Shown piece by piece: positions 979 through 43,267 of a DNA stretch of 64,000 nucleotides. The stretch's first letter is position 1. The number at the start of each line of letters is the position of its first letter. This DNA comes from Clostridia bacterium (GTDB lineage Bacteria; Bacillota; Clostridia; Oscillospirales; CAG-272), in assembly GCA_017451915.1 (NCBI GenBank), contig JAFTNJ010000031.1, positions 14,656 through 78,655 on the forward strand. The letters run 5' to 3'. The notes below the pieces were generated by a model. It was not told the DNA's origin. It did no database searches and was given only the letters and a program-made list of their open reading frames with translations. The translations under genes were made by a program, and so were the position numbers.

Positions 979-3900
979 ATGAAGAAACTGACAACAATTA
1001 TTCTCCTGTTTGCAATGGTTCTTTCCATGCTGGTACCCGTTGGCGCGGCTGAAGGCGCAAAGCTGGTAATGAGCGGAAACAATATTGCAAACGCACAGAG
1101 CGTCGCAGCTGGCGTGATCGGCACCGTTGGAGCCGTTGGCGCGGGCGCGGATGAGACCCAGTTCGGAACAGCATTGGGAACCGGTGCTTTAAAGTACGAT
1201 TCCTCTAAGGGTCCGGATAAGAAATTCTGGGAAGATATCCGTAAGACCGATGCTACCGAGATCCACATTACCACTGCCGAGCAGTTGTTTGGTTGGGTAA
1301 AGTACAGAGTTGCTGACTATACCGCAAACGGTAAAGATGGTTTGGACACGTTTGAAGGCGTTACCATTTACTTGGATGTTGACGTGGATTTGAACGGCGC
1401 CACCTGGGATGCCATCCACGGCGATATCATCTTCAAGGGTAACTTTAACGGTCAGGGCCACGTGGTTTCCAACTACAAAATGACTGTTGGTAGCTGGAAT
1501 AAGGGCTTCTTTGGTCGTGTTGGTGGAAATGCTACCATTCAAAATCTTTCCCTTATTAACGTGACCTATAATTTTGCTCGTAAAGATAAAAACAACTTGA
1601 ACAATCTTGGTATCCTCGTATCCACGGCTGAGCCTGGTACAGGTAACACTCTTACCATCAAAAACGTATATGTGAACGGTGTTATGACGCTGACCAATGA
1701 TGGCGTAAATAAAGATAATGCCAATCATGGTATCGGCGGTATTATTGGTATTGTAAGCAACGGTACCGTAGTGATGGAGAACTGTAAGTTCGTGGGTACC
1801 ATCTCTGATACAGCCAACACCAAGGGTGCTGTTGCACAGAAAACCGGTGGTTTGATTGGCACTGTATCTAATCCCGCTGTGGTTAATTTGACTAATTGTG
1901 AAGTGGATGCCACTATTAATGCAGGTGGCACGAGAATCGGCGGTTTGATTGGAAATCTGGATACCGAAAAATCCGTGACGATTGCAGATTGTTTGGTTTC
2001 GGGTAATATCCAAAGCAGAATCACGGCTGATAGTGCCTTTGTTGGCGGTCTTATCGGCGATGCTTCTTCGACTAAGTGTTCCCATAATGTAACCAATACT
2101 AAAGTGAAAGCAGAGATTCAAACTGCAGAAAAATCCACCTATGCGGGCGGATTCTTTGGTCAGTTGAGAGCTAAAGATGCAACCATTGATAAATGTACCT
2201 TTGAAGGCACTGTGAGAACTTGGACTCGTTGTGGTGGCTTTAGTGGTTATCTTCAGGGAACCGGTAAGTTCACTATTTCGAACTCTTCCGTTAACGCTGT
2301 ACTTAAAACAGGTCAAGGCCTTGTTGGTGGTATTGCCGGAAACGTAAATAGTAGCTATGCAGACATTGAGATTACTAATTGTTCCGTAGCCGGCGAGATT
2401 CAAGCTCCCACCGACGGTGCAGGCGGCGGCTATGCAGCTGGCGGTATTCTTTGTAGAATCTATAATACCTCCTCCAAGCCGATCGACGTTAAAATTGCTA
2501 ATTGTTCCGTATCTATGGACATTAATGCCGACGCAGAGCCCGGTGGCGGTATCATTGGTATTGTTCGTACTGATGCTTCTGTTATCGTAAATGATTTGAC
2601 TGTTGAAAATTGTGAGTATACCGGTACCTTGAAGTCTAAAAATAAGGCAGCAGGTATGATTGGTACTGTTGGTAATTTGACCGGTGATTTCACTCTTCGT
2701 GGTTGTTCCTTTGAAGGAGTTGTTGATACTACCGGTGCTTATGGCGCAGGTTTGATTGGTCAATTGGATGGCACTGTTGCCGGAGATTTGATTATTGATG
2801 ATTGCTCCGTAGCAGGAACTATTGAATGTAAAGGAAGTGCAGGCGGCTTGATTGGTGCTGTTGTAAAGAAAATTACCGGCACTACCACCGTTGATAACTG
2901 TGAAGTAAGCGCAACAATCATCTCCACCGGCCCTCACAATGGCGGATTCTTTGGTAATGTTGGTGGTTCTACCAACGGCTCCGGCCTTACTACCGTTACC
3001 AATTGCGAATTTACCGGATATATCAAGGGTACCTCTAACACCGGTGCTTTCTATGGCTTTATTTCCGGTTCTTCCAAGAACGATTACGTATTTAAGAACT
3101 GCGTTTCTTCCGGTACTGTGGAAGGACTTCGCGGCTCCGGTGGATTCCTGGGTTACTTCTCTTGTGATAATGTTACTCTGGAGAACATTCAGGTAACGGG
3201 TAATCTGAATCTGAGAGCGGATGATAGTGCAAACGCAGGAAACAATAGCGTTGGTGGCGTGGTTGGCCGCTTTGCAGGTCTCACCCATGCAACCTTGAAG
3301 GACGTTGTATTTAGCGGTACATTGAACGCGACGGTTGCTCCTGTCGGCTCGGCTGCAACCAATGCAGCACACGTTGGTGGCTTGATTGGTTACGTTGCAG
3401 CAGCTTCCTCGGTTGTAGAACTGGAGGATTGTCACGTAAATGCAGCTCTCCACTTTGCAGAGGATGGCAAGTATGCCTTTGTTAACAATCAGGGCATGGC
3501 GATCTTTATTGGCGGTGCAGCTGAGAGTTCTTCTGCAAGAGTAAACGTAATTTACGGTCAGAACGTAAACTACAACCTCAAGGCTCTGTCCAATGCAACC
3601 GGTCACGATGTAAAACTGGTTGGCGATTCCGTTCCCTCCATGGGTAACACCGCGGTTCTGGGCTACCAGATCAAGTGGAACGAGGATGATACCTACGATC
3701 TCCGCTACATCATTGGTATGAAGGACGTTTATGATAGCATCGGCGTTATGGCTGAGATCCGTTACAACTACGGTGAAGGCGTAAACGTTCGCTACGAGAA
3801 TGTTCAGGTTGAGAACGTTTACAAGGAAGTGGCTGACGGCGAATCCAACACCTACCGTGCTGCTGACTTCGCTATGGATTACCTCTACACTCTGACCATC

Positions 3901-37310: not shown

Positions 37311-40229
37311 TTATTGCTCCAATGCGCCCAAAAGACTGCGCAGACGAATGCGCACGGCGCCCAGGTTGGTGATCTCGTCAATTTTGATCTGCGTATAGTA
37401 TTTTTTGCCGCGCTCCAGGAGCTCGCGGATCTCGTCGGTGGTAATGGCGTCCAGACCGCAGCCAAAGGAGACCAGCTGAACCAGCTCGGTGTCGCTATGC
37501 TCGGTGGCGTAGCGTGCCGCCCGATAGAGACGGGCGTGGTAGGTCCATTGGTTGAGGACGTGTACCGAGGGCTTTTCGGTCAGATGACAGATGCTGTCCT
37601 CGCTGACCACCACAAAGCCCAGGGAGACCGCCAGCTTGTCGATGCCGTGACCGATCTCAGGATCGATATGGTAGGGTCTGCCCGCCAGGATCATGATCCG
37701 CTTTCCGTGCTTGCGGGCGTAGTCCACGGCGTATTCGCCTTCCTTGCGGATGGCGCTCATATAAGTCTCGTAGCTTTGCTTGCCCGCCTTGACCGCCGCG
37801 AGAATTTCTTTTTTGTTCAGGTCGGGAAAGACGGGAGAGAGGGCGGTCAAAAGCCCCTTGGCAAGCTCCCGGTCGTTATTGATGTTGAGGTAGGGGTAGA
37901 GGAAGCTCGTGCTTTGCAGACCTTCCACGTTACCCGCCAACAGCTCGGAGTAATAGGCCACCACGGGGCAGTTGTAGTGATTGTCCGCGGCTTTTTCGTC
38001 AATGTTGTAGCTCAGGCAGGGATAAAAGATGGCGTCTACCTTTTGCTCCAGGAGCTCCTCGATGTGTCCGTGCATCAGCTTGGCAGGGTAGCAGGCCGTG
38101 TCCGAGGGGATCGAGAATTGCCCCTTGGCGTAGGTTTTGTGGGTGGACTGCTCAGAGGCCACCACCCGCAAACCCAAATGCGTAAAGATCCCGTGCCACA
38201 GAGGATAGAGCTCGTAATGTCCCAAGGCCATGGGGATCCCAATGATACCCCGCGTGCCGTTGCCTGCGGGAAGATTCTTCAGGTAGGCGCGCTTAAAGGC
38301 GTGCAGGTTGGGAACGCTCTCCAGCTTGGAGGTGTCATAGCCCAGACCGCGTTCGCATTGGTTGCCCGAGATGTATTTTTTCTTGCCCTCGCCAAAGCCG
38401 TTCACCGTCAGGCGGCATTGATTGGTGCAGCCGTGGCAGGTGGCGGCCTTTGCGGTGTGAACAAAGGCTTTCAGTTCTTCGGCAGACACCAGCCTTGATT
38501 GATTCAGCTTTTTGGAATAAAGTGCCGCGCCAAAGGCACCCATCAGCCCAGCGATGGAGGGACGGATGACGTTTTTGCCCAGCTCCCGCTCAAAGGCGCG
38601 GAGCACGGCGTCGTTGTAAAAGGTTCCACCCTGTACCACCACGTGCTCGCCCAGCTCGTCGGGGGAGGTGGCGCGGATGACCTTGTAGATGGCGTTTTTG
38701 ACCACGCTCACCGAAAGTCCCGCCGAAATATCCTCCACCGTGGCTCCGTCCTTTTGGGACTGCTTGACCGAGGAGTTCATAAAGACCGTGCAGCGGCTTC
38801 CCAGGTCTACGGGAGCCTTAGCAAAGAGCCCTCGCTTGGCAAAGTCGGCAATGGAGTAGCCCATGGAGCGGGCAAAGGTCTCCACAAAAGAGCCGCAACC
38901 CGAGGAGCAGGCCTCGTTGAGCATGATGCTGTCAATGGCTCCGTTGCGAATACGGAAGCATTTGATGTCCTGACCGCCAATGTCGAGAATAAAGTCCACG
39001 TCGGGACGAAAGTGCTTGGCGGCGGTGTAATGGGCAATGGTCTCCACTACTCCCAGGTCTACGCCAAAGGCGGCTTTGATCAGCTCCTCACCGTAGCCCG
39101 TAACGGCACTGCCTTTGATGGCGATGCGTTCACCGCAAAGGCCGTAGATTTTTTCCAGCTGCTCCTTGACTACCGCCACGGGGGTGCCCAAATTGGAGGC
39201 ATAGTAGGAGTAGAGGATGCGGTCATCCTCGGAGATCAAGGCCAATTTGGTGGTGGTGCTGCCGCAGTCAATGCCCAACCAGGCGTTGCCTGTGTAGGCG
39301 TTGGGGTTGGCGGTGGGCACCGAGGCCTCGGCGTGCCGCTTGGCAAAGGCGTCGTATTCCTCGGCACTTTCAAAGAGGGCGGGGAGACGGTGGACGATGG
39401 GAGCTTCGTTCAGACTGCTTCGAATTCCGTCGCAAAGTGCTTGCAGGGTGATGGGAGTGCTGTTTTTTTGCGCGTAGAGCGCCGCACCGAGCGCCACGGC
39501 AAAGCGGCCGTCCTCGGGGAAGATGGCGTTCTCGTCGGAAAGCTTCAGGGTCTCTTTAAAGCGCAGCTGCAGACCCTTGCAATAGTAGAGAGGACCACCC
39601 AGGAACAGGACCTTTCCGGTGATCTTTTTTCCTCGCGCCAGTCCGGCAATGGTTTGGTTGACCACCGCTTGGAAGATGCTGGCGGAGATGTCCTCCTTGC
39701 GCGCCCCTTGATTGAGCAGAGGCTGTACGTCGGTTTTTGCAAAGACACCGCAACGGGAGGCAATGGGGTAGATGCGGTTGTGGGAGAGGCTGAGGCGATC
39801 CATTTCGTCCACGGTCACGTTTAAGAGCGTGGCCATTTGGTCGATAAAGGCACCGGTGCCGCCTGCGCAGGAGCCGTTCATGCGCTCGTCGGTTCCACCG
39901 TCAAAAAAGATGATCTTGGCGTCCTCGCCCCCCAACTCAATCACCGTGGAAACATCGGAGGCCACGTGCTTTACCGTTTCCCCCGTGGCAAAAACCTCCT
40001 GCACAAAGGTCAGCCCGGCGCTTTGGGCCAGCCCCAATCCCGCCGAGCCGGAGACCGCCACCAGGAGTGGCTCGTCTGCGGGCAGAGCGGGAATGTTAGC
40101 CAAAAGCTCCAGGGTCTTTTGCCGCACCTGGGAGAAGTGACGCTCGTATTTTTCATATATGACACGCTCTCCGTCGCGGAGAACCAATTTTGCCGTAGTG
40201 GAGCCGATATCAATACCAAGCGTTTTCAT
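37311..40229 (-). CDS. Double BadF/BadG/BcrA/BcrD-type ATPase (CoA-substrate-specific enzyme activase family)
   Basis: Two acetate/sugar-kinase-fold modules are present (LGIDIGSTTAKLV and LGIDCGSTTTKLA), followed by a Cys-containing linker. Confidence 0.75.
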   Translation of the reverse strand: MKTLGIDIGSTTAKLVLRDGERVIYEKYERHFSQVRQKTLELLANIPALPADEPLLVAVSGSAGLGLAQSAGLTFVQEVFATGETVKHVASDVSTVIELGGEDAKIIFFDGGTDERMNGSCAGGTGAFIDQMATLLNVTVDEMDRLSLSHNRIYPIASRCGVFAKTDVQPLLNQGARKEDISASIFQAVVNQTIAGLARGKKITGKVLFLGGPLYYCKGLQLRFKETLKLSDENAIFPEDGRFAVALGAALYAQKNSTPITLQALCDGIRSSLNEAPIVHRLPALFESAEEYDAFAKRHAEASVPTANPNAYTGNAWLGIDCGSTTTKLALISEDDRILYSYYASNLGTPVAVVKEQLEKIYGLCGERIAIKGSAVTGYGEELIKAAFGVDLGVVETIAHYTAAKHFRPDVDFILDIGGQDIKCFRIRNGAIDSIMLNEACSSGCGSFVETFARSMGYSIADFAKRGLFAKAPVDLGSRCTVFMNSSVKQSQKDGATVEDISAGLSVSVVKNAIYKVIRATSPDELGEHVVVQGGTFYNDAVLRAFERELGKNVIRPSIAGLMGAFGAALYSKKLNQSRLVSAEELKAFVHTAKAATCHGCTNQCRLTVNGFGEGKKKYISGNQCERGLGYDTSKLESVPNLHAFKRAYLKNLPAGNGTRGIIGIPMALGHYELYPLWHGIFTHLGLRVVASEQSTHKTYAKGQFSIPSDTACYPAKLMHGHIEELLEQKVDAIFYPCLSYNIDEKAADNHYNCPVVAYYSELLAGNVEGLQSTSFLYPYLNINNDRELAKGLLTALSPVFPDLNKKEILAAVKAGKQSYETYMSAIRKEGEYAVDYARKHGKRIMILAGRPYHIDPEIGHGIDKLAVSLGFVVVSEDSICHLTEKPSVHVLNQWTYHARLYRAARYATEHSDTELVQLVSFGCGLDAITTDEIRELLERGKKYYTQIKIDEITNLGAVRIRLRSLLGALEQ

Positions 40230-40421: not shown

Positions 40422-40508
40422 GCCGGTATGATGGAATTGGCAGACGTGCTGGACTCAAAATCCAGTGGTAGCGATACCGTGTCGGTTCGACCCCGACTAC
40501 CGGCACCA
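40422..40508 (+). tRNA. tRNA-Leu(CAA), type II with a long variable arm and an encoded CCA
   Basis: Acceptor GCCGGTA/TACCGGC; anticodon stem CTGGA/TCCAG with loop CTCAAAA; variable arm GGTA-GCGA-TACC; T arm GTCGG-TTCGACC-CCGAC. Confidence 0.9.
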
Positions 40509-40557
40509 ACAAAAAGAGCACCCATGTGGGTGCTCTTTTTGTTGGTGCCGGTAGTCG
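40494..40557. repeat. 30-bp perfect inverted repeat with a 4-nt loop, whose left arm contains the last 15 nt of tRNA-Leu
   Basis: CGACTACCGGCACCAACAAAAAGAGCACCC-ATGT-GGGTGCTCTTTTTGTTGGTGCCGGTAGTCG. The inner part resembles the tRNA terminator. Confidence 0.9.
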
Positions 40558-40741: not shown

Positions 40742-41656
40742 TCACAGCGCTTTCCAAAATACCGTTTCTGTATTCTGCTCATCCGGTTGATATCCGTGTT
40801 TGAAGCAGCAGCGTTTTATTGGCAGAGAAGCGCCATTGGTTGGTAGCGTAATCGACGCAAAGCCTTGTTCTTTAAAGAATTCCTCCGCATAGCGTATGGC
40901 AAACGAACCAATTCCTTGCCGTTGAAACCTTGGTGCCACAAACAGCATGGATATTTGCCCCGTCTTTTGACTTGGCGATCCGTGTATCTGCATATATGCC
41001 ACCGGTACGGCTCCTTTGCAGATCAAAAAATGCTTACGGTCGGGATCGGCCGTGGCAAGAAGCTCCCTCCATTGGCCCAAGCTGATATTGGCGGTATTGA
41101 AAGCACTTTTATTTTGAACAAACAGGATTCTCACAAAATATGCCTCTTGAGATGTGGCCGGAATGACGGTCAGCACCTTGGGGATGTCTGTTTCATACAT
41201 TTGTTGACCGTCGGTTTCCAAGTCGTGAAAGGGGGCGTATGCTTTTTCTGTAAAGCCTACCGAGGCTTGAAGCCTGTGACTTGGCGTGTTGGATAGCTCC
41301 ACGTAGCAGCGGAGTCTTTCGGCTCCCAGCTCGGATAAGTGGGAGATTGCAGCGTGGAGCATTTGCTTTGCAATTCCTCTCCTACGGTAGGCAGGTATCA
41401 CAAAAAGGTCGCCATAATACCAAAGGCGTGGGTCGGCTTTGTTTTTGACGCAATGCAGGCTGCCAACGACGTTCTTTTCCAAGGAAAGCGCAACGACTTC
41501 AAAGGTGTCGTTGCCGTCCGCAAGCTCGTCAAAAAGAAGCTGTCGGACACGATTCGTGTAGGTCGGCAAGGAGGAACCCCAACGGCTTTGCGCGGCGTTT
41601 TTGGCAAGTGGATCGGTTAAATAATTGCTGATTTGAATGGTGATGATTTCGTTCAT
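40742..41656 (-). CDS. Tandem-GNAT N-acetyltransferase
   Basis: Two acetyl-CoA motifs are present (YRRRGIAKQML and FQRQGIGSFAI). An AGAGG RBS precedes ATG 41656. Confidence 0.8.
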   Translation of the reverse strand: MNEIITIQISNYLTDPLAKNAAQSRWGSSLPTYTNRVRQLLFDELADGNDTFEVVALSLEKNVVGSLHCVKNKADPRLWYYGDLFVIPAYRRRGIAKQMLHAAISHLSELGAERLRCYVELSNTPSHRLQASVGFTEKAYAPFHDLETDGQQMYETDIPKVLTVIPATSQEAYFVRILFVQNKSAFNTANISLGQWRELLATADPDRKHFLICKGAVPVAYMQIHGSPSQKTGQISMLFVAPRFQRQGIGSFAIRYAEEFFKEQGFASITLPTNGASLPIKRCCFKHGYQPDEQNTETVFWKAL

Positions 41657-41671
41657 TTTATACCTCTTTCT

Positions 41672-41710
41672 CAAAAAATAAAATGCCCTTGATAAAATCA
41701 AGGGCATTTT
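41672..41710 (-). terminator. Attenuator terminator between the leader ORF and the GNAT gene
   Basis: AAAAUGCCCUUGAU/AUCAAGGGCAUUUU hairpin followed by U-run AUUUUUU, lying 16 nt before the GNAT start codon. Confidence 0.8.
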
Positions 41711-41731
41711 GAGCAAGAGGCAGGGGGGGCG

Positions 41732-41782
41732 TCAGGATGCGGACAAAATGGCAGTTGATTTTATCATTGCTTCGGTTGTCAT
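41732..41782 (-). CDS. 16-codon leader peptide ORF (MTTEAMIKSTAILSAS)
   Basis: AAGGAGGTG lies 6 nt upstream of the ATG. A consensus promoter lies upstream and a terminator downstream. Confidence 0.5.
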   Translation of the reverse strand: MTTEAMIKSTAILSAS

Positions 41783-43267
41783 TTTGTCCACCTCCTTTCG
41801 TAATATTTTCACCTTTATTATAACAAAAAAATTGCAGGAAGTCAATAGGGTGCATTCAACTGTTCGTTTAGTTAGGGTCCTCTGTTGTACCATGCCCCGT
41901 GGGAAGGTTGGAGAGCTCCTTGGCGGTGACGCGTGCTTTTTTGCCGGAGGGACTGTAGGCCGAGGGGGATAGACCGAGGCGCTGGGAGCCAGCTCGGCGG
42001 GGTCTACCGTTTGCAGGAGTGGATCGTTGGTGCGTTGCATCCAATCGTCCAGAACACGGGAAAGCGTGGCGTATTCCTCTGCGTAGGAGGGATTGTCTAC
42101 CAGGTTGATCCGCTCGCAGGGATCGGCCATCAGATCAAAGAGCTCCTCCCGCGGCCGCGCCTGTCGGGAGAGCGGGGTGCGGAAATAAAGATCCTTTGGC
42201 GCACTGTCGTCGGTGTTGGCGGGGGGACGGTGCTCGGCGGCGGGGAAGTAATAGCGGATCAGCTTATGGGTCTTCGAGCGCACGCTCCGCATGGGCTCGT
42301 AGGAGGCGTGAAAGGTGACCTCGGAGAAAATATAATCGTTGAGGTGATCTTCGCCTTGCGTTGGTTGGGCGTCAAGGGCTTCCATCAGGGGAAGCATGGA
42401 ATGTCCCTGGAGCCACGCGGGCTTGGGTACTCCCAAAACGTCACACACGGTGGGGTAAACGTCCAGATGAGAGATCAGCGCGTCGGAGCAGGCGTGTCCC
42501 ATGCGGGGATGCCGCAGGATCAAGGCCACTCCGGTGCCGGCGTCGTACAGAGAGCATTTCATGTGGGGGAAGGCGATGCCGTGGTCGGTGGTAAAGAGTA
42601 CGGCGGTATCCTCGTACAGCCCGTTCTCCTTCAACGCCCTCAGGATGCGGCCCACACATTCGTCGGCAATGGAAATGGATTTTTGATAGCTCCGGTAGTC
42701 CAAACGGTTCTCGGGGGTATCGGGGACGGTATGGGGCGGAAGGACGAAAGCAGACTGCTCCGTTTCCTCGGTGGTCAGGGTCGGGTAGGGGCGGTGGGTA
42801 CAGCGAAGACCAAAGGAGAGGAAGAAGGGCGATTTCTTCCGCGCGGGATCGGCAAGGAATTTTTCGGCCACCTCGGTGTGGTGGTAATCGGTATCCTCAT
42901 TGGTTTTGAGCCGATTCCAGTAGAATTCGTTGTACCCGAGCAGGGCGTGGTCGGCTCTTCCCGCCTCGTGCTGTACGCCAATGACGGCGGTGTAAATCCC
43001 CTGCTCACTCAAATAGTGTCCCAGATGCTTGGAGGTATCGTTGAGAGAAAAGCCCAGGTGTGCCAGTCCCAGCATTCCCGTGTTGTGGGGAGCCATGCCC
43101 ATGAGCATTCCAGCGCGGCTGGGCGAGCAGGTTGGTCCCGCGCAATGCGCCTGACGAAAGAGAAATCCCTCGGCCGCCAGGGCAGATAGGGCGGGGGTGT
43201 GGCAGGCATAGCCGTAAGGACGCATCATACGTCCGCTGTCATGGGTATGAAGGTAAACAAAATTCAT
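41732..43267 (-). CDS. Sulfatase (Cys-type, CxPxR). The 3' end is uncertain.
   Basis: The product MNFVYLHTHDSG...CSPSRAGMLMG follows a GGAGG RBS at ATG 43267. The last ~45 codons run through the promoter, RBS and leader ORF of the next unit. Confidence 0.75.
   Translation of the reverse strand: MNFVYLHTHDSGRMMRPYGYACHTPALSALAAEGFLFRQAHCAGPTCSPSRAGMLMGMAPHNTGMLGLAHLGFSLNDTSKHLGHYLSEQGIYTAVIGVQHEAGRADHALLGYNEFYWNRLKTNEDTDYHHTEVAEKFLADPARKKSPFFLSFGLRCTHRPYPTLTTEETEQSAFVLPPHTVPDTPENRLDYRSYQKSISIADECVGRILRALKENGLYEDTAVLFTTDHGIAFPHMKCSLYDAGTGVALILRHPRMGHACSDALISHLDVYPTVCDVLGVPKPAWLQGHSMLPLMEALDAQPTQGEDHLNDYIFSEVTFHASYEPMRSVRSKTHKLIRYYFPAAEHRPPANTDDSAPKDLYFRTPLSRQARPREELFDLMADPCERINLVDNPSYAEEYATLSRVLDDWMQRTNDPLLQTVDPAELAPSASVYPPRPTVPPAKKHASPPRSSPTFPRGMVQQRTLTKRTVECTLLTSCNFFVIIKVKILRKEVDKMTTEAMIKSTAILSAS
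41817..41845 (-). promoter_or_regulatory. Promoter of the leader ORF and GNAT unit
   Basis: TTGACT-N17-(TGt)TATAAT, located inside the 3' end of the sulfatase ORF. Confidence 0.75.

Follow-up and report, generated by a model that had tools for sequence, protein, structure and literature searches.

The 64,000 nt stretch of contig JAFTNJ010000031.1 from a Clostridia bacterium (hereafter the window) carries on its minus strand the gene for a 304 aa tandem-GNAT N-acetyltransferase, and directly in front of this gene lies a leader with a short open reading frame (ORF) and an intrinsic terminator. The leader is probably a ribosome-dependent attenuator that gates the GNAT gene doubly, by transcription termination and by occlusion of its ribosome-binding site (RBS). 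Judged by its sequence and by analogy, we file it as a putative, previously undescribed member of the ribosome-stalling attenuators of the vmlR/tlrB/bmrCD kind. The features of that class found here are a short ORF with its own Shine-Dalgarno (SD) sequence, a stretch without promoter after the terminator, an antiterminator that overlaps the ORF, an anti-antiterminator and an SD-sequestering structure. It is distinguished by a 16-codon upstream ORF (uORF) whose SD and AUG serve as the anti-antiterminator strand, by an antiterminator that invades the apex and loop of the terminator, and by cargo dominated by acetyltransferases. Attenuators of this type are a classic Gram-positive means of silencing resistance genes until the drug comes; to our knowledge few have been characterized, and most of these are from Bacillus, staphylococci and streptococci.

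Organization and helices of the leader

All coordinates refer to the window and, unless indicated, to its minus strand. The predicted promoter (41817-41845) has a -35 box TTGACT (41845-41840), a 17 nt gap and an extended -10 box TGtTATAAT (41825-41817); it matches the consensus at 11 of 12 positions, carries the TG extension and is the top promoter-like score within 3 kb. The leader SD, AAGGAGGTG (41789-41797; AAGGAGGUG as RNA), is 6 nt 5' of the AUG at 41782 that opens the 16-codon ORF MTTEAMIKSTAILSAS (41732-41782), the frame and stop codon of which (UGA, 41734-41732) are conserved. After a spacer of 21 nt comes the terminator (41672-41710), a 14 bp hairpin and AUUUUUUG, with the 5' arm at 41710-41697, a UUU loop at 41696-41694 and the 3' arm at 41693-41680; an AUUUUUU tract lies directly 3' of the hairpin (41710-41680). 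The GNAT gene (40742-41656), with two Acetyltransf_1 domains, starts at the ATG at 41656 and is preceded by the SD AGAGG (41667-41663). Only 15 nt separate the U-tract from this ATG and no promoter-like site lies within them, leaving no room for a second promoter, so the GNAT would be expressed by read-through only. An initial annotation of this DNA had named the promoter, SD, 16-codon ORF, 21 nt spacer, 14 bp terminator with AUUUUUU, AGAGG and GNAT ATG, and each of these was found on the minus strand just where that annotation had placed it. One detail was misquoted, as the text it gave for the terminator 3' arm, AAAAUCAAGGGCAUUUU, is absent from the sequence, which reads UUUUAUCAAGGGCAUUUU.

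The 176 nt leader region has a minimum free energy (MFE) of -57.8 kcal/mol (z = -6.9), and none of 200 dinucleotide shuffles folded as well. Region 1 (GUGGACAAAAUG, 41780-41791), which extends from the end of the SD through the AUG, is perfectly complementary over 12 bp to region 2b (CAUUUUGUCCGC, 41739-41750, leader codons 11-15), and the two pair in the MFE fold as the 5' and 3' strands of an anti-antiterminator (helix 1:2b). The antiterminator strand is region 2a (UGAUAAAAUCAA, 41755-41766), which covers leader codons 6-10 (+17 to +28 from the AUG) and is the exact 12 bp complement of UUGAUUUUAUCA (41701-41690). This target comprises the upper part of the 5' arm of the terminator, the loop and the first four bases of the 3' arm. 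In the window, the CAUUUUG within region 2b has a second possible partner, the CAAAAUG that forms the base of the terminator 5' arm, and the full alternative pairing thus consists of 7 bp of CAUUUUG:CAAAAUG, an internal loop and the 12 bp of UGAUAAAAUCAA:UUGAUUUUAUCA. The initial annotation had described the antiterminator as 8+2+6 bp; it is 7 bp and 12 bp around an internal loop, with the longer part running through the terminator loop into the 3' arm. In a further helix, an anti-SD strand in the spacer 3' of the leader stop (UGCCUCUUGCUC, 41711-41722) pairs with GAGAAAGAGGUA (41661-41672), which holds the GNAT SD. This helix extends the base of the terminator and buries the SD, and the U-tract forms a bulge in the extended stem. 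Both GUGGACAAAAUG:CAUUUUGUCCGC (12 bp) and UGCCUCUUGCUC:GAGAAAGAGGUA had been missed in the initial annotation.

Conservation and covariation in the leader family

Relatives of the GNAT protein come from gut and rumen Clostridia, in metagenome-assembled genomes (MAGs) labelled Oscillospiraceae, Ruminococcaceae and Acutalibacteraceae; the nearest is 64% identical and most are about 55% identical. The same leader is found directly 5' of the gene in about 40 of 50 genomic loci encoding these relatives. A pattern scan of metagenome contigs with the core GGTGGRCRAAATG-N18-36-TTTTGTCC returned at least 120 stretches, including about 75 true leaders among the matches listed. The initial annotation had proposed to look for the small ORF and its alternative pairing in relatives, and both recur in over 80 distinct sequences. 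Hardly any core nucleotide varies, and in alignment A2 positions G8, G10 and G11 of the SD are invariant along with the AUG. Among 75 distinct related loci, 58 have a promoter of the form TTGAYN-N16-18-TAHRWT 5' of the leader.

Helix statistics were taken from an alignment of 35 distinct leaders. The 12 pairs of helix 1:2b are paired in 98.6% of cells, and eight of them vary on one side with pairing kept. The terminator is 94% paired, with eight pairs changed on both sides (53 cells), and its score was reached by none of 500 shuffles. For the 12 bp antiterminator formed by region 2a and the terminator apex (2a:apex), 96% of cells are paired, five pairs have changed on both sides, and again no shuffle of 500 equalled it in the number of changed pairs. 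The initial annotation had a segment of the leader pair with the terminator, and this holds for 2a:apex; the CAUUUUG:CAAAAUG pairing that it stressed is paired in only 75% of cells across the family and is largely specific to the window. These figures place the conserved core of the antiterminator in the 12 bp formed with the terminator apex.

In one subfamily the terminator differs (GGCAUCUCCG-loop-CGGAGGUGCC), and region 2 of its leaders has changed to match (CGAAACAGAGAUGCC) with regions 1 and 2b unchanged. Duplexes between an ORF and its own terminator average -14.1 kcal/mol, versus -8.0 kcal/mol when terminators are swapped between the two classes. This wholesale co-change of terminator and region 2 is the strongest evidence, from comparison of sequences, that the predicted antiterminator is real.

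RNAalifold run on alignment A2 recovered helix 1:2b and the terminator and did not recover the SD-sequestering helix, probably through misalignment of the variable spacer by MAFFT, and the latter helix was therefore examined sequence by sequence. At least 60% of the downstream SD is paired in the MFE folds of 56 of 64 distinct 3' domains. Of the SD nucleotides, a fraction of 0.84 pairs with the spacer in the native sequences versus 0.51 with the spacer shuffled, and the native fold is the more stable by 7.1 kcal/mol. The four leader helices are conserved and mutually exclusive. A permissive scan of 41650-41800 against Rfam 15 (E <= 1) returned only chance microRNA models far below their gathering scores.

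One relative departs from this arrangement (L014; JAFQEJ010000033.1, ~2715-3000). Its core is intact, and the terminator is replaced by about 150 nt with other hairpins before the GNAT gene, which looks like an insertion or rearrangement inside the attenuator.

Probable translation of the leader ORF

The comparative evidence that the predicted leader ORF is translated is good. We picked 83 distinct elements by terminator and complementarity alone, irrespective of any ORF. Measured from the A of the AUG to the end of UUGUCC, 75 of them span 42 nt, 7 span 45 nt and 1 spans 36 nt, and each of these lengths is divisible by three, whereas chance matches to the pattern have distances spread over every residue class. 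An in-frame stop codon occurs between UUGUCC and the terminator in 81 of the 83, compared with 23 and 51 for the other two frames. The stop is exactly two codons past UCC in 65 elements and ranges from one to seven codons overall, and the terminator begins 13-43 nt 3' of it across the family. In one leader (L018) a +1 shift before region 2a is followed by a -1 shift after it, and the frame is restored.

The recurrent peptide motifs, 'LIKS' and 'ILSA', are translations of paired nucleotides, and the middle motif changes with the terminator class. Because the motif is encoded in paired nucleotides and switches in this way, the identity of the middle peptide is probably not under selection.

A natural variant of the ORF occurs in one relative (L001; JAFTJB010000156.1, ~2861-3003), where the stop TAA has become GAA and the ORF crosses the terminator to end at a TAA that overlaps the GNAT RBS. 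This is either a constitutive or translationally coupled variant or a sequencing error in the MAG.

Proposed mechanism

Transcription would start from the TTGACT/TGtTATAAT promoter, and the GNAT gene would be reached only by reading through the terminator at 41710-41672. In the OFF state, region 1 (SD/AUG) is predicted to pair with region 2b (codons 11-15) and to close region 2a in the loop. The terminator would then form, and any read-through RNA would be silenced by pairing of the GNAT SD with the spacer 3' of the leader stop. This state has the support of predicted structure and of covariation. For the ON state, we infer that the switch is thrown by a ribosome on the start codon or on the first one or two codons, which would cover region 1 and block helix 1:2b. 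Region 2a, at +17 and just past the ribosome, could then capture the emerging terminator over its 5' arm, its loop and the start of its 3' arm; termination would fail, and the GNAT would be transcribed and translated. A normally elongating ribosome would cover region 2 and then release it, letting the RNA fold back to the OFF state.

Folding of the nascent RNA with ribosome masks, the mask for the start codon covering -15 to +16, is in keeping with this scheme. Unmasked RNA forms helix 1:2b and then the terminator. Under the start-codon mask, helix 1:2b is lost, and both parts of region 2 (2a and 2b) pair instead with the arm and loop of the emerging terminator (-12.7 to -20.2 kcal/mol). Folding of the alternative structures had been suggested in the initial annotation, and anti-antiterminator, antiterminator and terminator were each obtained, with or without ribosome masks.

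By analogy, the trigger is most likely a drug that arrests initiating or early ribosomes (of the lincosamide, pleuromutilin or streptogramin-A type) or else general translation stress. Of 62 distinct elements, 53 have an antiterminator helix that begins at +16/+17 from the AUG; this position coincides with the 3' edge of an initiating ribosome and so favours a trigger like that of vmlR. The idea that a translation inhibitor may induce the GNAT draws on the vmlR/tlrB/bmrCD systems and on the kinds of genes found behind the leader; if so triggered, the GNAT would be a stress- or drug-induced modifying enzyme.

A number of points weigh against this account or narrow it. Sampling of the elements relied on a pattern derived from the conserved core, and because relatives are not independent of one another, the counts overstate the number of evolutionary events. 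Helix 1:2b has only one-sided changes and no double compensation. All of the conserved codons lie inside helices, which makes selection on the peptide inseparable from selection on the RNA. At equilibrium the terminator wins under each ribosome mask, as it usually does in attenuators, and the ON state must therefore be kinetic. With the ribosome mask placed at the stop codon, region 2a alone still pairs with the apex (12 bp, -10.3 kcal/mol), so that more than one stall position agrees with the folding. A search of RNA runs for the window sequence found none, and three DNA gut-metagenome runs carry it; runs labelled 'RNA' for one relative (L055) are assembled contigs, some of them probably DNA, with no read ends and no attenuation signal. 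Finally, the GNAT reaches the profile cut-off of no curated resistance family (AAC(6'), AAC(3), streptothricin acetyltransferase or Eis-like).

Alternative explanations

The main rival to arrest at the start codon keeps the same RNA switch and moves the arrest to the final codons of the leader (14-16) or its stop, in the manner of tlrB or ermC, possibly with nascent-peptide-dependent arrest at ...LSA(D/N)-stop. Such a ribosome would mask region 2b and the anti-SD spacer, leave region 2a free for the apex and expose the GNAT SD. The folding with the mask at the stop agrees with this, as does the conserved antiterminator, which consists of region 2a only, the pairing of 2b with the base of the arm not being conserved. 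The initial annotation had a ribosome at the stop mask the antiterminator; it would indeed cover codons 11-17, but the conserved core at codons 6-10 stays free. The placement of the stop codon can also be read this way, given that it is exactly two codons past UCC in most elements, that the anti-SD strand starts 0-9 nt past it in most elements, and that the peptide mostly ends in Asp or Asn, each encoded by both of its codons (GAU/GAC, AAC/AAU). There is a precedent in tlrB, in which late stalling on the leader blocks both the terminator and the hairpin that sequesters the SD. Against it, however, the stop position varies over one to seven codons past UCC and one leader has no stop at all, the middle of the peptide is swapped wholesale with the terminator class, and an antiterminator that begins at +16/+17 suits a ribosome on the start codon. 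Moreover, a normally terminating ribosome would also permit read-through and make the switch leaky. We consider arrest at the end of the leader unlikely, and arrest at or near the start codon remains the preferred reading.

Sensing of an amino-acid or charged-tRNA shortage, as in the trp/his/leu attenuators and the whiB7 uORF, would replace the drug as trigger. The three-strand logic (1:2, 2:3, 3:4) is that of the biosynthetic attenuators, neither the Leu codon UUG nor the Ser codon UCC varies, and a tRNA-Leu(CAA) gene adjoins the GNAT gene in the window. Base pairing fully accounts for the invariant codons, however, and the leaders show no tandem repetition of any codon. A stall would have to fall on codons 2-5 to free region 2, yet these vary (T-T-E-A, T-N-L-T, K-R-K-V, T-E-P-I), and the cargo genes are non-biosynthetic; shortage sensing is accordingly a very improbable trigger. 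Slightly less probable still is a conserved RNA read by a small-molecule ligand, an RNA-binding protein or a small RNA, with the ORF incidental. Nucleotide conservation is extreme for genes whose proteins are only about 55% identical, and amino-acid conservation is inseparable from RNA constraints, as such a reader would have it; but the four mutually exclusive helices explain nearly all of the conserved nucleotides and leave no spare loop or junction for a pocket, the frame, SD spacing, AUG and stop codon are all retained, and Rfam 15 gave no match even at the permissive threshold. The last alternative, raised in the initial annotation as a possible refutation, is that the hairpin is the terminator of an upstream sulfatase gene, the small ORF is the tail of that gene, and the GNAT has its own transcription start site. 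The sulfatase ORF (41732-43267) has no stop of its own and runs in frame through the promoter and leader ORF to the leader UGA, and it is called to that stop in four assemblies of the organism, with identical arrangement; ribosomes ending the sulfatase would thus cross the leader. Yet similarity to solved sulfatases ceases about 90 residues before the ORF stop, GC falls from 0.65 to 0.28 at 41860, with the other two frames stopping near there (~41870), and the 15 nt gap before the GNAT ATG lacks a promoter-like site. Among the leader loci listed (>80) a sulfatase adjoins the leader in this genome only, the leader and terminator travelling with the downstream gene elsewhere, frequently with a promoter of their own (the 58 of 75 loci above). 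The sulfatase-terminator explanation was rejected on the GC drop, the end of homology and the absence of a sulfatase at the other leader loci, and its probability is negligible.

Comparison with known attenuators

The closest parallel is the leader of vmlR, which encodes an ABCF resistance factor in B. subtilis. There, the uORF lies within the anti-antiterminator, an antiterminator competes with an intrinsic terminator, and a hairpin sequesters the SD; the inducers are drugs that arrest ribosomes at initiation, and a 30S subunit on the uORF start codon yields a toeprint at +16 (PMC9226507). The four-part logic is alike, and the antiterminator start at +16/+17 here is close to the vmlR toeprint. 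The two leaders have no sequence relationship, and they differ in that the uORF has 16 codons here and three in vmlR, the uORF here supplies both strands of the anti-antiterminator, from its SD/AUG and from its 3' codons, the antiterminator targets the apex and loop of the terminator and not its base, and the cargo is a GNAT and not an ABCF protein. No NusG pause motif was seen by eye 5' of the terminator, a point on which no systematic test was made.

In tlrB (yxjB) of B. subtilis, stalling occurs late, at an RYR motif, and the ribosome itself obstructs the terminator base (PMC6851288). The bmrB-bmrCD operon is reported to be controlled by leader-peptide attenuation (PMC4191407), and bmrCD and ytbDE are regulated like vmlR and tlrB. 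A leader peptide, an intrinsic terminator and an SD-sequestering structure are common to tlrB, bmrCD and the leader described here. In tlrB and bmrCD, translation of the leader is required and the stalled ribosome relieves both termination and SD occlusion. Unlike in tlrB, the terminator here lies 13-43 nt past the stop, so a separate antiterminator strand is needed, and one is present.

In the erm, cat and cmlA systems, a ribosome stalled on a short leader ORF re-pairs four RNA segments and frees the SD of the resistance gene. That control is mainly translational, does not need a terminator and requires specific arrest peptides, whereas the present family has kept a strong intrinsic terminator, and the central part of its peptide can vary along with the RNA. 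The trp, his and leu attenuators likewise have 1:2, 2:3 and 3:4 strands read by a ribosome on the leader peptide, and differ from the present leader, which has no run of regulatory codons, variable early codons and non-biosynthetic cargo. A looser analogue is toiL, a uORF that senses several classes of ribosome-targeting drugs; it is found 5' of topAI-yjhQ in E. coli and acts by disruption of a hairpin over the downstream RBS, and tetracycline is reported to stall ribosomes at the toiL start codon (PMC12121999). Termination in toiL is Rho-dependent and intragenic, with no intrinsic terminator/antiterminator pair, and the two leaders share no sequence relationship. A search of the available literature found no description of such a leader before Clostridia GNAT genes, which is absence of evidence and not proof.

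The GNAT protein and other genes behind the leader

The GNAT protein has two GNAT folds in one chain, as seen from its two Acetyltransf_1 stretches, its structural model and Foldseek. The AlphaFold2 model has a predicted local distance difference test score (pLDDT) of 84.7, and the best Foldseek matches are tandem GNATs with a whole-chain template modelling (TM) score of 0.35-0.4, the low value plausibly reflecting a different orientation of the two modelled domains. The structural matches (VipF, 2wpx, 5kf1, 7q3a, MshD) have diverse functions, and they include a clavulanate-pathway tandem GNAT, a Clostridium glucosamine N-acetyltransferase and MAB_4324. Searches for the substrate by PDB profiles, NCBIfam and Foldseek returned generic GNAT or tandem-GNAT matches only and no equivalog; in NCBIfam the best AAC_6p match scored 36 bits versus a cut-off of 140, and stat scored 20 versus 420.

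The leader precedes at least eight kinds of genes, mostly acyltransferases, methyltransferases and Mef-related major facilitator superfamily (MFS) transporters. Among the matches listed, the cargo comprises single, tandem and triple GNATs, a NAT_N/GNAT_C acyltransferase, DHA3-type MFS transporters (TIGR00900, distantly Mef(A)-like), two kinds of class I S-adenosylmethionine (SAM) methyltransferase, a phosphodiesterase-family protein, a xylose-isomerase-like TIM barrel and an alpha/beta-hydrolase-like protein. Modifying enzymes and exporters fit a response to drugs or translation stress, though the argument is circumstantial. In two cases (L054 and L110) the leader lies before a protein of 429-590 aa with ABC_ATPase (PF09818) and MRB1590_C domains, and this placement is a lead to the role of the ABC_ATPase family, which has no established function. 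Behind another leader (L081; Ga0209629_10121944) is a gene whose product, at least 590 aa long, combines two GNAT domains with a C-terminal region that matches the protein-kinase fold weakly (E = 5.5e-4) and could be a bifunctional acetyl- and phosphotransferase.

The leader is well defined, strongly conserved in uncultured gut and rumen Clostridia that resemble Oscillospiraceae, and not in Rfam. It is possible, though we hold the view only tentatively and regard it as rather doubtful, that this widespread undescribed family is a common sensor of ribosome-targeting antibiotics that individually switches on scattered detoxifying genes (several GNAT architectures, DHA3 MFS pumps, SAM methyltransferases and an ABC_ATPase protein among them), with the 304 aa tandem GNATs as new inducible antibiotic-modifying enzymes. 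If that is true, the leader would be a genomic flag for as yet unrecognized resistance genes in commensals. A response to translation inhibitors would make it a marker of candidate inducible resistance or detoxification genes missed by homology-based searches, as well as a compact natural sensor part. Even with general translation stress as the trigger, two design features would broaden the repertoire of attenuators, namely the use of SD/AUG as an anti-antiterminator strand and the apex-invading antiterminator.

Neighbouring features of the window

No further copies of the leader were found within the 64 kb window. The tRNA-Leu(CAA) gene (40422-40508, plus strand) is convergent with the GNAT gene and reads the UUG codon that is invariant in the leader. 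A perfect 31 bp inverted repeat with a 2 nt loop (arms 40494-40524 and 40527-40557) starts in the 3' end of this tRNA gene; candidate readings are a long terminator, the remnant of an attachment site and a palindrome produced by assembly. Past the tRNA gene, and unrelated to the leader, is a gene (37311-40229, minus strand) for a 972 aa protein with BcrAD_BadFG ATPase and DUF2229 domains that resembles a 2-hydroxyacyl-CoA dehydratase activator.

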